Below are positions 35,573-55,143 of a stretch of 64,000 nucleotides of DNA, piece by piece. The notes under the pieces are model-generated. The model was not told the DNA's origin and made no database searches. It saw nothing but the letters and a program-made list of their open reading frames with translations. The stretch is taken from the IMG/VR virus record IMGVR_UViG_3300037455_000543, positions 283,136-347,135 of that record. One strand, written 5' to 3'. This stretch comes from a virus (taxonomy: Duplodnaviria > Heunggongvirae > Uroviricota > Caudoviricetes). The translations under genes were made by a program, and so were the position numbers. Numbering within the stretch: position 1 is the first letter of the stretch; the number at the start of each line of letters is the position of its first letter.

Positions 35573-35701
35573 AGTGATTTACTCCTTGAGTTTGTTTTGT
35601 TTGTTGATGTTTTGTTTTGTTGATGTGCTTAATATAGTTAATTTCGTAAGCTTTGTCAATGCGTTTGTGAAGCATTATTTTTTCGCAGTCAACCTTGAGG
35701 T

Positions 35702-35869
35702 TTAGTCTTCAGTTTCGTCTTCAGACACCCATTCAGTTGTACGACACATATCTTCAACTGCATATTCACTCATCTCAGACAAGCATTCGCGAGCAACGGT
35801 TTCCCAATCGAGTTCACCGCTTTCACACTTAGCAAGCAGAGCATTCGTGTATTTTCTTACGTTAACCAT
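35702..35869 (-). CDS. Small phage protein (55 aa)
   Basis: Manual ORF MVNVRKYTNALL...ECLSEMSEYAVEDM. Confidence 0.65.
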   Translation of the reverse strand: MVNVRKYTNALLAKCESGELDWETVARECLSEMSEYAVEDMCRTTEWVSEDETED

Positions 35870-35949
35870 ATTAACCTCATCGTTATGTGCATAATATAGA
35901 AAAAACGAGCTTAATTGAAAGCCCGTTCTATCTTAATATTTTTCCCCAG

Positions 35950-36171
35950 TTATCTCATGTTAAAGGCATCCAGTAATCCGGAGTAGTCCTCGTCAATCTG
36001 TGCCTTCTTAACAGATCTTCTATACTGTGGTGGTTTATAATAACTCTTTTTCTTTTTCGGATGTCTCTGAGTTAATATATATCTGGTTCTTGGCTGTCTG
36101 CGTGCAGAGAGGTTGATTACAGGTTCATCCAGGAGTTCGTCAAGTATTTCAAATATGTCAAATATATTCAT
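35950..36171 (-). CDS. Hypothetical protein
   Basis: Start at MNIFD. Confidence 0.55.
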   Translation of the reverse strand: MNIFDIFEILDELLDEPVINLSARRQPRTRYILTQRHPKKKKSYYKPPQYRRSVKKAQIDEDYSGLLDAFNMR

Positions 36172-36245
36172 ATTATTATATATGAAAAACCCATGGAGAA
36201 TTAACTCCATGGGAAACAAATGACCAACAAAAGGACAAATTATGG

Positions 36246-36536
36246 TCAAATCTTACTCAATGTCGCTTGTATCTCTGTATCTGCATATAGTTCCCAGAAA
36301 TCTGGTTTATCCTGGTTTGCAAGAAGATCCAGCAACAACATATCCCACATGGGATTAACGGGATTATCAATCATCTCATTGATGACGATATCAATCTCAT
36401 GTTCAGAATAAAGCTTTACAAGATTCTTGTATGCGTTATCAGTCGCAATGACTGGAACATTACGATACTTAAGAGAATTTGCGACAATATTCTTTAAACG
36501 GTTAATCTCGTTATAATAGATGTCATTCGTAATCAT
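36246..36536 (-). CDS. Hypothetical protein, leaderless
   Basis: ATG 6 nt after -10. Confidence 0.7.
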   Translation of the reverse strand: MITNDIYYNEINRLKNIVANSLKYRNVPVIATDNAYKNLVKLYSEHEIDIVINEMIDNPVNPMWDMLLLDLLANQDKPDFWELYADTEIQATLSKI

Positions 36537-36601
36537 AATCTTAATATAATAAAATGCAGGGTCAATGTAAACCCTACATATTCTATTTAGCCACCTTCAG
36601 T

Positions 36602-36787
36602 TTACTTAACAGAAAGAACCAACTTTAATACTTGAAGTTCGGCAATTCTCGCTTTCAAATCTCTGACTCGCATCTCGTAGACGAACCTCAGAGATTCCAG
36701 AGCGGAGTTCTTAGGTAAAACACCAGAGTTAATGATCTTGATTGCGTTTTCGAATTTTTCTTTCTTTTCAATGAGTTCTTTAATCAT
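36602..36787 (-). CDS. Hypothetical protein
   Basis: GGAG RBS. Confidence 0.65.
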   Translation of the reverse strand: MIKELIEKKEKFENAIKIINSGVLPKNSALESLRFVYEMRVRDLKARIAELQVLKLVLSVK

Positions 36788-37046
36788 TGAGTATCTCCAT
36801 TAGTTAAGGTTTATACTATATTATCGTATTTGGAGATAAAAATGTAAAGTATTATAATATATCTGTCAATATCATTATACCTAGAATAAGGAATACGACA
36901 AACATTGCAGCTACAATACTACCTGCTGACGTTCCATAAATGAATGCTTCTGCATTTCCAGCATTCTGGGCAGCTGTGATCACCATCGCGGTCTGTAAGT
37001 CATGCATAATCGCCTCCTTGTTTTATTTATCTATTGAGGGTCCTCT

Positions 37047-37160
37047 AAAAATAACAAAACCCTGTGACCATCATCACAGGGTTCCGACATTGTTTCCAAC
37101 CCGAGGTCAATATCGGCAAACCTCGCCGGGCTGGTCAAAAAGGAGCCACCAGACACCGGA
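37047..37160 (-). ncRNA. Candidate three-hairpin small RNA ending in an intrinsic terminator
   Basis: Stems 37126-37159 and 37084-37116 with C/U-rich loops; terminator stem 37058-37083 plus U-tract. Confidence 0.45.
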
Positions 37161-37173
37161 ATTCAAAAATGGA

Positions 37174-37289
37174 TGGTAGCAATGGCAGGACTCGAACCTA
37201 CAACCCGCTGGTTACAAGCCAAAAATAGGAACAGTCAATGCATTACTGCGGACAGTAAGTAAGCTGCTCTACCATTGAGCTACATTGCA
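37174..37289 (-). tRNA. tRNA-Thr(UGU) interrupted by a 41-nt insertion in the anticodon stem
   Basis: TGCAATG-TAGCTCAATGGTAGAGCA-GC[41 nt]TGG-CTTGTAA-CCAGC...GGTTCGAGTCC...CATTGCT-A-CCA. Confidence 0.7.
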
Positions 37290-37366
37290 CCATCTGCAAA
37301 AGTAGGCGGGGTGTATGAACCGTAAAAATAATTGTTATTAATAGGAACACCCTGTGCCTTAATTTC

Positions 37367-37567
37367 TTAGTCACACTCTCGGTTGATGATATACTTCTGC
37401 TTGATTTCATCAGGAGCATCAATCAGTTCAACCTTGATGTCACCAACTGCTTCCTTCTGAACATCAGCCAGCATGATTTCCTTTGCGGCATCATACTCTT
37501 CATCTGTTGCACTATCAGGCAATGCGAATTGGCGCTTTACAGTGTAAGTTACTTCAAACTTCTTCAT
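37367..37567 (-). CDS. Hypothetical protein
   Basis: RBS and promoter. Confidence 0.7.
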   Translation of the reverse strand: MKKFEVTYTVKRQFALPDSATDEEYDAAKEIMLADVQKEAVGDIKVELIDAPDEIKQKYIINRECD

Positions 37568-37654
37568 TATTTATTCTCCTTTCGTTGTTGATTGTATTGT
37601 TAATATAATAAATTATTCTACTCTTGTAAACCCTCAATGAGGGATTATTTTTTA

Positions 37655-37810
37655 TCAGTCATCCTCATCATCTTCTACCGGTTCCTCGTCATCGTAGACG
37701 GAATCATATCCGCATTCAGGACATTCCCATCCTTCAACCAACTGGTGATCGATATGCGGATCATCAGTAATCATTCTTTTGAGCTTTGCATCACAGTTAG
37801 GACATCTCAT
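37655..37810 (-). CDS. Small Zn-ribbon protein (51 aa)
   Basis: MRCPNC...WECPECG, acidic tail. Confidence 0.65.
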   Translation of the reverse strand: MRCPNCDAKLKRMITDDPHIDHQLVEGWECPECGYDSVYDDEEPVEDDEDD

Positions 37811-37822
37811 AGTTAATTCTCC

Positions 37823-38044
37823 TTAAAGGTTACCCATCCTGTTTTTCTGTAATGCGCTTAAAACAATTGCAGGCATTACTGCAAAATCTGTAATGTCAAC
37901 CTTCGTTTGCTGTGTAATGTCTTCAACACTATATGTTCCGGTTTCGGCAATAAAATCACCTACCTTACAAGCATCAGTTTCTGAAAGTTGTGTTTTAGAC
38001 GTTATTTCAACAGGAATAAATACCATTTTTGTAAATTCAGCCAT
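37823..38044 (-). CDS. Hypothetical protein
   Basis: N-terminus resembles 43044..43268. Confidence 0.7.
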   Translation of the reverse strand: MAEFTKMVFIPVEITSKTQLSETDACKVGDFIAETGTYSVEDITQQTKVDITDFAVMPAIVLSALQKNRMGNL

Positions 38045-38280
38045 AATTAACTCCTTATTGGTTATGTTCTTAATATAGAAAAAGATGTGGCTATTGTAAA
38101 CCACATCCTTATCTTATATTCTGTTCAGTTATCTTATGGAAGTTCTATATGGAATACGAAATAACTGCTTCCCGGTTTATTCGTGATGTTAACAATTCTT
38201 CCGTCATATTCATTATACACGAACTGCAACATATCGAGTTCGTCTTTGGTAAGGTTAATCGAATATACCATTATTACTCC

Positions 38281-38697
38281 TTATAACTTATACATTGCAC
38301 AGATTTTAGTGAACATTTCAAATGCGGATTCTGCTTCATGAGGTTCATAAATGAAATACTTGGTACAGCCGACAGATTCTTCTTCGTTTTCGTATTCCAA
38401 GGAAATAACATATCCGTCCTTCAGAACTTCGTAACCGTTACCATTGTTTTTACTGTCCGACCACCGCATCTGTCTCAGCATACCCTTTTCAAGGAGTTCA
38501 AGAGTAACAAAGACATTGGAAAAATGGTTTGTCTTAACGGTTTTACCATGCTTAAATTCCGTGGTCGGAATATTGATTTTACCTTCAAAGTGATTCAACT
38601 TAATGGTATCGATATGGTCAAAGAAATCTTGTTCGTTTTCAATAAAAGTCTTTTTCTCAGAAACATATTCATCGAGTCGCATACTGTATTGAGCCAT
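38281..38697 (-). CDS. Hypothetical protein
   Basis: RBS and promoter. Confidence 0.75.
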   Translation of the reverse strand: MAQYSMRLDEYVSEKKTFIENEQDFFDHIDTIKLNHFEGKINIPTTEFKHGKTVKTNHFSNVFVTLELLEKGMLRQMRWSDSKNNGNGYEVLKDGYVISLEYENEEESVGCTKYFIYEPHEAESAFEMFTKICAMYKL

Positions 38698-42794: not shown

Positions 42795-43043
42795 ATTTTT
42801 ATTTATAGGAGAAAATTTTTGTTTTTCGTTTTTACGTTGTATAATATAGTAAATTATTTCATCTTTGTAAACCCCTAATTATATTCTTCACTGTCCAGGA
42901 TAGATTGGGCGATTTCTTCACAGTTGCAGCCGTTATCCCAGTCTTCGTAGATAGATCCAGCATACGATGCGATCAGATCATCTGCCTGGTCAACGGAACA
43001 ACCCTTTCGGACCAAATGGTCTTTAACGATTTCTTTTACTTCT

Positions 43044-45560: not shown

Positions 45561-45646
45561 AGATAATCTCCTGTTGATGCTTATAATATAGTAAAATATG
45601 GCATTATTGTAAAGGAAAGGCACTGGATATTTCTATCCAGTCAACC

Positions 45647-46219
45647 TTAAGTGTTAGAACCGTCCTGACCACAGCGAAGAATTAACTGTTCAGGAGTGTA
45701 GTACTTTTTATACATACTTTCACACTTATGTTTGAGTACGTCACTGTTCTTGAGTTGTTCCAGCAAAGACGGAAGTTCTGCAAGGAATTCTTCCACGGTT
45801 TCATACTTCTTGTTGTTGATTCGACAGGTAAGACTCGGCCAGGTCTGTTCGAATTCACCATTGTCATTCGTAATACCCCAACCCCAGTGTGTCTTCGGAT
45901 CATCCGTACGTTTCGGTTCGTAGATGTCAACCACAGAGTATTCAACACCGTCAATTACGGTATCAAGCGGAGCAACCCAAGCACAACCCATATAGATGGA
46001 CGGGTACATTGCGGGGGATTTCGAGTTGAACTTTTCCCAGTTCTTGATAACTCTTGCCCAATTGTCACGTTTTTCGATGTTATACTGAGCTGCATTCTTT
46101 CGAGCTGCCTTCTTGCTCCAGAATGCATGGACCTTCTTGAAATAATCCGGCTTGTTGCGATAGAGAGGGAGGAATCCGGCGGATTCGATAAGATGGTTCA
46201 AACTCTTGATTGTAATCAT
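45647..46219 (-). CDS. Hypothetical protein
   Basis: RBS and promoter. Confidence 0.75.
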   Translation of the reverse strand: MITIKSLNHLIESAGFLPLYRNKPDYFKKVHAFWSKKAARKNAAQYNIEKRDNWARVIKNWEKFNSKSPAMYPSIYMGCAWVAPLDTVIDGVEYSVVDIYEPKRTDDPKTHWGWGITNDNGEFEQTWPSLTCRINNKKYETVEEFLAELPSLLEQLKNSDVLKHKCESMYKKYYTPEQLILRCGQDGSNT

Positions 46220-46348
46220 GTTAATCTCCTGTTGATGCCTATAATATAGTAAAAAGTGGCATGTCTGTATATAAAAAATGACTGGATATTCCTATCCAGT
46301 CATCCTTTTTCACCACACAACAAGGAGATACCATTATCCATTTTTTAA

Positions 46349-46880
46349 CGTGGTTGTCATGATGAACCTATCCACAAAACCATGGTGATCCCGAGTGTAT
46401 TCAGCACTCTTTTGTTACGTAGTACGGATCACTTAACCACGGGGAGGACACGTAAAAACTAATACTCCCATAGCCTAGCATCCCAGTCACGATGGACGCC
46501 ACCCCGTCTGGTTTTACGGACCGGTTATCTCGCGCAGTCCAGTGCGTCATATTTGGCTGAAGAGACCAAACAAACCAGAAAATAAACTTTGTTTTGGAGT
46601 CACCTTTAGCTTGCCAATCCAATGGCGATACACTCTCTCAAGGTACAGCATGGATAAATTGTCTAAACCCAACATGTTTAACGTTCATGCAAACGGTCAG
46701 TTTTACTCATTACAGGAAACTAACAAGACCGCCCTAGTCCCATATAATATTGACGACTACTAGATGCTACTAGGATTTATTTAAATCATTAGTAAGGTCC
46801 CTTTGGCTCATGCCTATCCTTACCGTTTATGCGCGATTAACTGCAATGGCTTTACGCTGGGCTCACTCCAGTAATGATTT
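46349..46880 (-). ncRNA. Large structured ncRNA candidate (ROOL/GOLLD-like), co-transcribed with tRNA-Leu
   Basis: ~530 nt with no credible ORF; many nested stems; terminator at 46274-46305. Confidence 0.65.
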
Positions 46881-46886
46881 TTTTCG

Positions 46887-46971
46887 TAGCCGGAGAGGGA
46901 CTTGAACCCTCACGGAGATTGCCTCCAGCAGATTTTAAGTCTGCGCTGTCTACCCATTCCAGCATCCGGCC
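46887..46971 (-). tRNA. tRNA-Leu(UAA)
   Basis: GCAGA-CTTAAAA-TCTGC; long variable arm GGAG-GCAAT-CTCC. Confidence 0.9.
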
Positions 46972-47095
46972 AGGCTGCTCCCGTTTTATAAGGAGCGAAG
47001 CAATATCAACTTCAGCATTAAGGTACAATACTAACAGGTTTTAATATAGAATTTTATCCTCGAATTGTCAACCCGTCTTAACAGAATTTTCTGTT

Positions 47096-54394: not shown

Positions 54395-54465
54395 TAAAAA
54401 TTTCCGGGGAAGTTTTTTATTTTTATATATTTATAACGAAAAAAGGACAGAGCAGATCTATCCAT

Positions 54466-54920
54466 TGAACTTTAGATGTTCGGAGATGTCCATGTTAGGG
54501 TGATCGTCTTAAAGTCAGGTTCTTTGAGTTCTATCCTACACCAGCGAGTTAAACATGGACCGGAGACATCAAGCCTATCCAGGAACACTGAATAGACTGA
54601 CAGGTATGGACCATCAACCTCTGTGGGATTTACTTATAGGCTTACGATGCAGGCATTCCGGCTCACCGACTACATCCTATAATACCGATGCGGCTATCTA
54701 GGTTCTTTGTTATCAGAACCCTCTGCGGTAATATACGCTAGACTGTTTCTTGTAATACCACGGATTAGGTATAACTCGGCCGTCCGAGCCAAGAAACTTA
54801 CTGAAAGGACTTACCTCATCCCCAGCGGCTTACCCTCTACCGACAGCATCATTGAGTTGAGTTTCGCTCCGAGGAATAAGACTTACTATGTAATTGCGTT
54901 TCTTAGGGAACCTAAGTTCA
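54466..54920 (-). ncRNA. Large structured ncRNA candidate
   Basis: Ends pair (UGAACUUAG / CUAAAGUUCA); internal stems; terminator at 54439-54463; promoter -10 at 55048-55053. Confidence 0.6.
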
Positions 54921-55143
54921 TTATTATATATAACAGTTTTCCACTGGAACCTTTTGTCCCAGTTTATTAATAATATACTAACAGTTTACTAACATGTTAT
55001 AAACACAGTTACAACATATTGAACCCAGTTACCTATTTTTTGGTTTAAATATAGAAAAGTTTTCTGTTTTGTAAAGTTATAGAAATATTTAGATTTTAAT
55101 GTTAACGTTTATAAACATTTACTTTTTTACTATATTTGTGTAT

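Follow-up and report, generated by a model that had tools for sequence, protein, structure and literature searches.

Large, intricately folded RNAs are rare in bacteria and phages. The two classes described so far from phages, GOLLD (RF02032) and ROOL (RF03087), occur near phage tRNA islands (Weinberg et al. 2009; Weinberg et al. 2017, PMC5737381). In GOLLD, the 3′ region is conserved, the 5′ region varies, and tRNAs are sometimes present in the linker (Weinberg et al. 2009). ROOL, which was first found in rumen data, has an average length of 581 nt, is present in at least three bacterial phyla, and was proposed to be possibly co-transcribed with tRNAs (Weinberg et al. 2017, PMC5737381). Both RNAs form closed homo-oligomeric cages made of RNA only, ROOL as an 8-mer and GOLLD as a 14-mer (Kretsch et al., bioRxiv 10.1101/2024.12.08.627333).

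Here, we analyze a 64,000-nt stretch of DNA (hereafter the window) that corresponds to bases 283136-347135 of a 424,163-bp virus record (IMGVR_UViG_3300037455_000543) with direct terminal repeats. A first-pass annotation of the window had noticed an ornate noncoding RNA of ~530 nt (46349-46880) downstream of tRNA-Leu and had taken it for a ROOL-like RNA or a new class. Our comparative sequence analysis indicates, with a probability of roughly 0.8, that this locus is a real, independent, structured noncoding RNA gene of a new family, encoded on the minus strand.

An ORF-free element between tRNA-Leu and a gene for a 190-aa protein

Genes in the window are oriented on the minus strand nearly throughout. 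The RNA locus is flanked by tRNA-Leu(UAA) (46886-46971, minus strand), which has no encoded CCA, and by a gene for a 190-aa protein (45647-46219, minus strand); a phage GroEL gene lies 1.2 kb upstream of the locus. This is a setting of the ROOL type, namely, a virus record in which tRNA-Leu adjoins the RNA, with a cluster of five tRNAs 4 kb downstream. Pfam and PHROGs searches with nine neighboring proteins gave matches to GroEL and to one family of unknown function only.

The element extends from approximately 46885 to 46272 on the minus strand (~610 nt). The first-pass annotation had pointed to the right place, but its 3′ boundary fell ~75 nt short of the end of the RNA at the terminator. 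Its statement that the region contains no credible ORF was confirmed, as each of the six frames is interrupted by 7 to 16 stops of at least two kinds across 46311-46885. Coding through an alternative genetic code was ruled out because the stop kinds are mixed and no single reassignment opens any frame. The longest ORFs in the region are 73 aa with TTG or GTG starts, and they cross the site at which relatives carry insertions of 80-146 nt.

Homologs in closely related megaphages

Homologs of the RNA are present on ~10 metagenomic contigs of close megaphage relatives and represent three sequence types; the contigs derive from the data sets ERZ27298744, ERZ27297722, SRR16020819, SRR29517105, Ga0265301, and Ga0265298. 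Loci anchored on GroEL yielded one homolog, L004, which was also the only one recovered among these loci with an nhmmer profile. Homologs of the downstream 190-aa protein, followed to their contigs, led to L048, L049, L050, L051, and L052-L056, and a 19-mer that is invariant in all copies, scanned through JGI metagenomes, led to L057 and L059 (two true and eight chance matches). Conserved-word scans of IMG/VR with four patterns returned only the known contig, with the remaining matches being due to chance. No close IMG/VR relatives of the 190-aa neighbor protein were found, and a profile search for its distant homologs returned the same eight clusters; in the two most divergent of these (L104 and L105), the RNA is absent upstream of the 190-aa gene homolog. 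Neither the nhmmer profile nor a covariance model (R2) detected a second copy of the RNA in the genome.

Type A comprises the window, L057, and L059, and type B comprises L004, L048, L049, and L051. L052 (L052:1-830) is a mosaic that carries a third version of helices P1-P3 and of pseudoknot 1, which form part of the 5′ module. L050 (L050:1-591) is likewise a mosaic and combines a B-like 5′ module with an A-like 3′ module, the latter sharing 97.5% identity with the window. Recombination between phages seems to have occurred at or near the linker, and, judging from these sequences, the two modules are freely recombined among sister phages. The DNA identity of the RNA between types is 74-75%, compared with 68-82% for the flanking genes; the notion of a conservation above that of the flanks was therefore rejected.

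In five related megaphages whose GroEL proteins are 51-64% identical, blastn and two covariance models (R1 and R2) found no credible copy; the best match scored 13.8 bits and lay inside a 626-aa ORF. The syntenic region of these five genomes also contains no large gene-free gap. The distribution of the RNA is therefore limited to a narrow clade.

The 5′ module and the linker

The RNA consists of two folded modules, 46775-46588 and 46586-46304, that meet at a permissive linker site (46588/46587); all coordinates in this and the following section are on the minus strand. In type A only, the modules are preceded by a 5′ extension domain (46783-46885), which is closed by AAAUCAUUA/UAAUGAUUU and contains GUAAGG/CCUUAC; in sister phages, the RNA's own promoter is found at this position. 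The four substitutions that L057 and L059 show in the extension are all in predicted loops. These two helices, both named in the first-pass annotation, are thus known from one phage species (type A) only.

The 5′ module begins with helix P1 (46775-46769/46738-46732), which encloses hairpin P1a (46765-46758/46749-46742) with a conserved GUCG core in its loop; the pairs of both helices were counted in alignment A3. The P3 hairpin (46698-46722) has six pairs, is 100% paired, and shows three pairs in three different versions, and its 13-nt loop (CCUGURAUGAGUA) varies at one A/G position and is otherwise invariant. Pseudoknot 1 (46672-46695) is of the H-type. Its stem a (46695-46692/46685-46682) and stem b (46690-46686/46676-46672) are both 100% paired, with changes on both sides in two of four and four of five pairs, respectively: the window has CGUU/AACG with GCAUG/CAUGU, and L052 has CAGUU/AACUG with GUGCA/UGCAU. 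The following segment (46608-46670) contains the invariant P4 hairpin (46670-46667/46655-46652) and a three-way junction formed by P5 (46650-46647/46611-46608), P5a (46646-46643/46631-46628), and P5b (46626-46623/46616-46613). P5b changes from GCCA/UGGC to GUUG/CAAC, and P5a from GUAC/GUAU to GAGG/CCUC to GGG/CCC, with the MAFFT register of the latter helix being one off. The module closes with an invariant single-stranded block, AAGGUGACUCCAAAACAAA (46588-46606), which ends at the linker site.

The linker has no insert in the window, ~82 nt of hairpins in L050, and ~146 nt with a tRNA-like element in type B. This type B cloverleaf scores 39.9 bits as a tRNA and lies on the same strand as the RNA. 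The element (L048:4507-4579 and L004:3279-3354) has a 6-nt anticodon loop, CGAAAA or CAGAAA, in which ARAGORN assigns an anticodon of 2 nt. The anticodon stem covaries between L004 and L048, and the odd loop is therefore apparently maintained rather than decaying. The acceptor stem is degenerate, with four to six of seven pairs. The GOLLD arrangement, in which the linker between two domains sometimes includes a tRNA, is thus found here as well, as a likeness in build that is no evidence of homology.

This arrangement also allows the 5′ and 3′ modules to be regarded as two co-transcribed RNAs, which RNase P/Z would split at the tRNA-like element in sister phages. Such a reading agrees with the independent recombination of the modules (L050, with L052 also being mosaic), with the tRNA score of the insert between them, and with the fact that the sole long-range helix connecting them is lineage-specific. 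However, the modules are always adjacent and in the same order, from one promoter to one terminator; nothing separates them in the window; and the acceptor stem of the tRNA-like element is degenerate. We therefore consider two separate RNAs to be improbable.

The 3′ module, tail, and terminator

The 3′ module opens with P6 (46579-46572/46514-46507), which encloses P6a (46569-46566/46556-46553) and P6b (46541-46537/46521-46517). In the sister type, P6b is 8 bp long and shows covariation among the copies of that type; its register in the window was set by eye. The P6b loop keeps a self-complementary hexamer in every type, UGCGCG in the window and UGCGCA in type B. The former self-pairs with two terminal G·U pairs, and the latter is extended to AUGCGCAU in some type B copies. 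A self-complementary loop hexamer of this kind may be an element that mediates loop-loop dimerization, with one such hexamer being close to chance expectation.

The next hairpin, P7 (GCGUCC/GGAUGC, 46478-46499), is 97% paired, with four of five pairs changed on both sides, and has a conserved loop core, UCGUGA. Pseudoknot 2 (46442-46476) is formed by S1 (AGGCUA/UAGUUU, 46476-46471/46461-46456) and S2 (GGGAG/CUCCC, 46469-46465/46446-46442); both stems are 100% paired, and one pair in S1 and three in S2 are changed on both sides. The 3′ domain (46349-46441) is closed by P-alpha (CGUGGUU/AACCACG, 46441-46435/46355-46349) and contains P-beta (46432-46426/46391-46385) and P-gamma (46409-46405/46397-46393), with a conserved strand, ACUACGUAAYAAAAG, between the helices of the domain. 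Three pairs of P-beta and two of P-gamma are changed on both sides. P-alpha is invariant in six of seven pairs and is thus conserved without covariation. Pseudoknot 3 and the 3′ tail (46304-46363) follow. P10 (46363-46359/46334-46330), which crosses P-alpha, is 100% paired with two pairs changed on both sides, and is mutually exclusive with P-delta (46384-46380/46362-46358). Because both crossing stems pair, the three pseudoknots are supported. A candidate 12-bp helix (46423-46412/46323-46312) retains 12 of 12 pairs in nine of nine sequences, at a length that, with G·U pairs, is expected about once by chance. The 3′ tail also contains an invariant block, AUCUCCUUGUUGUGUGGUGAAAAA.

All nine helices named in the first-pass annotation exist in the sequence, and their fates in the comparison differ. 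Four are conserved: GGGAG/CUCCC, GUGAUCC/GGAUCAC, and GAGUG/CACUC through compensatory changes, and CGUGGUU/AACCACG (P-alpha) without covariation. CGGUC/GACCG pairs in eight of nine sequences but shows one-sided changes only and overlaps better-supported helices. UAGCAUC/GAUGCUA and GACGC/GCGUC were abandoned as conserved features; they are lineage-specific, with zero to three pairs in the other type, and clash with the covarying P7.

An intrinsic terminator (46272-46303, minus strand) follows the 3′ tail. Preceded by an A-tract, its 11-bp stem with a 4-nt loop runs straight into UUUUUU, and the terminator sequence hardly differs among the relatives. A terminator after the RNA had been correctly predicted, but it lies outside the interval originally given for the RNA. 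Lying between an A-tract and a U-tract (46272-46310 including these flanks), the hairpin could stop transcription from either direction. A consensus scan reported a terminator on the plus strand only; the minus-strand stem was probably extended into the T run.

Strand, promoters, and the link to tRNA-Leu

The minus strand is indicated consistently by the G·U pairs, the standard promoter motif, the terminator, and the tRNA-like insert of the relatives. The proportion of paired cells is 93.4% on the minus strand versus 83.1% on the plus strand, with 89 G·U cells, and RNAalifold gives -107 kcal/mol for the minus strand versus -82 kcal/mol for the plus strand. On this sequence evidence, the RNA strand is the minus strand, the same as that of tRNA-Leu.

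Upstream of tRNA-Leu, a promoter TTGACA-N17-TATATT (47043-47071, minus strand) has 11 of 12 consensus matches, and the minus strand of the window has no promoter-like site in the interval from tRNA-Leu to the RNA. The RNA would therefore have to be read from the tRNA-Leu promoter (47071-47043), which is, as far as promoter motifs indicate, the only promoter-like site able to drive it in this genome; tRNA-Leu and the RNA are probably co-transcribed. A second promoter, TATACA-N17-TATATT (46243-46271, minus strand), includes the TTTACTATATT motif and serves the next gene (45647-46219, 190 aa). With one mismatch or less, TTTACTATATT occurs 61 times in the window versus 2.8 expected, and nearly all of these copies precede genes and lie on the gene strand (for example, at 46243-46253, 45585-45595, and 42843-42853). 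The motif resembles an extended -10 and appears to be the standard promoter element of the phage. With a separate promoter for the next gene beyond the terminator, the RNA is a stand-alone unit.

The relatives differ from the window in this respect. TTTACA-N17-TATATT lies directly upstream of the RNA in L048 and L057, and in type B it lies between tRNA-Leu and the RNA core. L057 and L059 belong to the same phage species as the window (99.7% identical over 2.3-4.3 kb) and contain the RNA intact behind its own promoter, which is located ~10 nt before the 5′ extension. In place of tRNA-Leu, they carry a 952-nt cassette (L057:2275-3226) at the position corresponding to 46881-46966 of the window. 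Its product, at 269 aa, contains two C2H2-like zinc-finger motifs and gives only weak Pfam matches; the gene may be mobile and homing-endonuclease-like, with the tRNA as its target. Because this 99.7%-identical strain has the RNA and its own promoter but no tRNA, the link to tRNA-Leu is facultative: the adjacency seen in the first-pass annotation is true for the window but is not obligatory.

In the mechanism that we propose, a host-type RNA polymerase would transcribe the RNA from the phage's standard promoter. In the window, transcription would start at the tRNA-Leu promoter, and 3′ processing of the tRNA would create the 5′ end of the RNA, whereas in the 99.7%-identical strain and in the sister type, transcription would start at the RNA's own promoter. 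Transcription would end at the intrinsic terminator (46303-46272).

The position of the RNA between two genes could alternatively mean that it is a cis-acting element, either a 3′ trailer for the maturation of tRNA-Leu or a long 5′ leader or riboswitch of the 190-aa gene. The RNA abuts tRNA-Leu with no promoter between them, and it lies upstream of the 190/192-aa gene at every locus that has the RNA. A trailer function, however, is at odds with the 99.7%-identical RNA that exists without the tRNA and behind its own promoter, and a leader function is at odds with the strong terminator and separate promoter before the next gene, as well as with the distant 190-aa gene homologs (L104 and L105) that have no RNA upstream. 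These observations make a cis-acting role very unlikely and favor an independent RNA gene.

Comparison with known RNA families

In an Rfam 15 search over the RNA region, at gathering scores and at E ≤ 10 with lax filters, only tRNA was above threshold, and the same search of the divergent sister-type locus, at the gathering score and at E ≤ 10, gave only tRNAs above threshold. Weak matches to MicC, SAM-II, HH10, and others were rejected because their scores were far under the gathering thresholds. The GOLLD model (RF02032; gathering score of 150 bits), which covers the conserved 3′ region, had no match at E ≤ 10 in the region, the sister-type locus, or the whole genome. The ROOL model (RF03087; gathering score of 99.1 bits) had no match at E ≤ 10 in the region, the sister-type locus, or the 424-kb genome, a negative that rests mainly on the two region searches, as control genomes gave no match in the genome-wide search either. 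ARAGORN found no tmRNA, and the Rfam models of tmRNA, RNase P RNA, and group I introns had no matches at E ≤ 10 in the region or the sister-type locus. A group I intron of tRNA-Leu(UAA) was ruled out because the tRNA is uninterrupted, with the RNA located after its 3′ end. Blastn against GenBank phages matched only the tRNA-Leu part.

Of the two possibilities raised in the first-pass annotation, the new class is the one that agrees with these searches, and membership in ROOL or GOLLD is not, there being no match to an Rfam family. Divergence beyond the reach of the Rfam models might still conceal membership in ROOL or GOLLD, given the shared phage and tRNA setting, the size, the several pseudoknots, and the GOLLD-like linker with a tRNA-like element in relatives. 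Such a member would have had to escape both models at E ≤ 10 with lax filters in two divergent types, and genome-wide, and we regard this explanation as highly improbable. The RNA is an undescribed family that is confined to a small, narrow megaphage clade.

The window contains further RNA candidates. A full-length match to the Rfam cow-rumen-2 motif (54621-54727, minus strand) scores 71.6 bits (gathering score of 66) and sits within an ORF-poor stretch (~54439-54932); it has no similarity to the RNA at 46885-46272. In addition, Rfam identifies a tRNA at 37177-37289 (minus strand; 44.1 bits) that ARAGORN missed and that has 52 nt around the anticodon versus 11 expected. An intron or a large insertion may account for the excess, and this tRNA is located within a 2.6-kb stretch (35623-38281) without an ORF of 100 aa or more.

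Covariation and folding energy

The proposed structure comprises 107 pairs in 19 helices, including the three pseudoknots. Counted on the same sequences from which the structure was derived, these are 90-97% paired, and 40 pairs are changed on both sides, in a set that represents about three independent lineages so that many of the double changes are inherited rather than repeated events. For P1 and P1a (alignment A3; 15 pairs), 91.4% of the cells are paired and six pairs are changed on both sides. The corresponding values are 90.3% and 15 pairs for the 5′ core (A6; 31 pairs), 94.4% and 12 pairs for the first half of the 3′ module (A4; 36 pairs), and 97.1% and seven pairs for its second half (A5; 25 pairs). 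In each of the four counts, none of 500 shuffles reached the observed covariation score, and a control in which the partner was slid by one to three columns gave 23-53% pairing. The compensatory changes clearly set the proposed helices apart from both controls.

Folding energy, which had also been suggested as an indicator, did not distinguish the RNA: the single-sequence energy of the minus strand equals that of shuffles (z of -0.26 and -0.16), and the plus strand has a z of -3.0. The poor value of the minus strand presumably arises from its G+U-rich composition, and single-sequence z-scores are uninformative here, or misleading on strand. The explanation that there is no functional RNA, but decayed coding or spacer DNA with chance helices or a plus-strand antisense transcript, could appeal to these energies but is hardly tenable in view of the 40 pairs changed on both sides, the pairing far above that of the slid controls, the 89 G·U cells that would be A·C mismatches on the plus strand, and the promoters, terminator, tRNA-like insert, and neighboring genes, all of which are on the minus strand.

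Discussion

The comparison of about 10 related loci supports the reading of this element as a noncoding RNA gene of its own, and its possible function can be approached by analogy. Among possible roles, we tentatively favor that of a stable particle that would act in trans while the phage infects its host, much as is supposed for GOLLD and ROOL. Self-assembly of the RNA, specifically, is more doubtful; if it occurs, the copies may associate through the conserved loop UGCGCR. By the same analogy, the RNA may deal with tRNAs or with the translation machinery. The most elaborate version of this reading is speculative and, in our opinion, unlikely: the RNA would be a third family of phage RNA particles that self-assemble, evolved independently of the other two, in which UGCGCR joins the copies and the linker displays or encloses a tRNA-shaped cargo. 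Such an assembly could, for instance, act on the ribosome, or it could decoy or shelter tRNAs from tRNA-cutting nucleases of the host.

A further, unrelated family with the same genomic habit (a giant phage, nearby tRNAs, and a linker into which a tRNA-shaped insert fits) would suggest convergence on a function in infection that is linked to tRNAs or translation. The natural variants, with a linker that is empty, 82 nt long, or tRNA-like, with or without the 5′ extension, and with or without the adjacent tRNA, constitute a compact comparative system in which such a function could be examined. Even if the RNA is only a lineage-specific structured RNA, it is an addition to the catalogs of RNA families and a correction of megaphage annotation.

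Compared with ROOL, the new RNA gives no match to the model in the region or genome, and the conserved motifs differ. ROOL is present in at least three bacterial phyla, whereas the new RNA is known from ~10 closely related phage contigs. The two RNAs are alike in size, and the several multistem junctions and three supported pseudoknots of the new RNA may be a further likeness. They also share a phage setting near tRNA genes, possible co-transcription with tRNAs, and an association with rumen data.

Compared with GOLLD, the new RNA shows no sequence or structure match to the model and is shorter, at ~610 nt (~660 nt in the sister type) versus often more than 800 nt. Its core modules are about equally conserved (74-75%), in contrast to the conserved 3′ and variable 5′ halves of GOLLD, and it is known from one narrow megaphage clade only. 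On the other hand, both are large, pseudoknotted, ORF-free RNAs of phages or prophages that lie beside tRNA genes, and both are built in two parts: the linker of GOLLD can carry a tRNA, and that of the new RNA carries a tRNA-like element in the sister phages.
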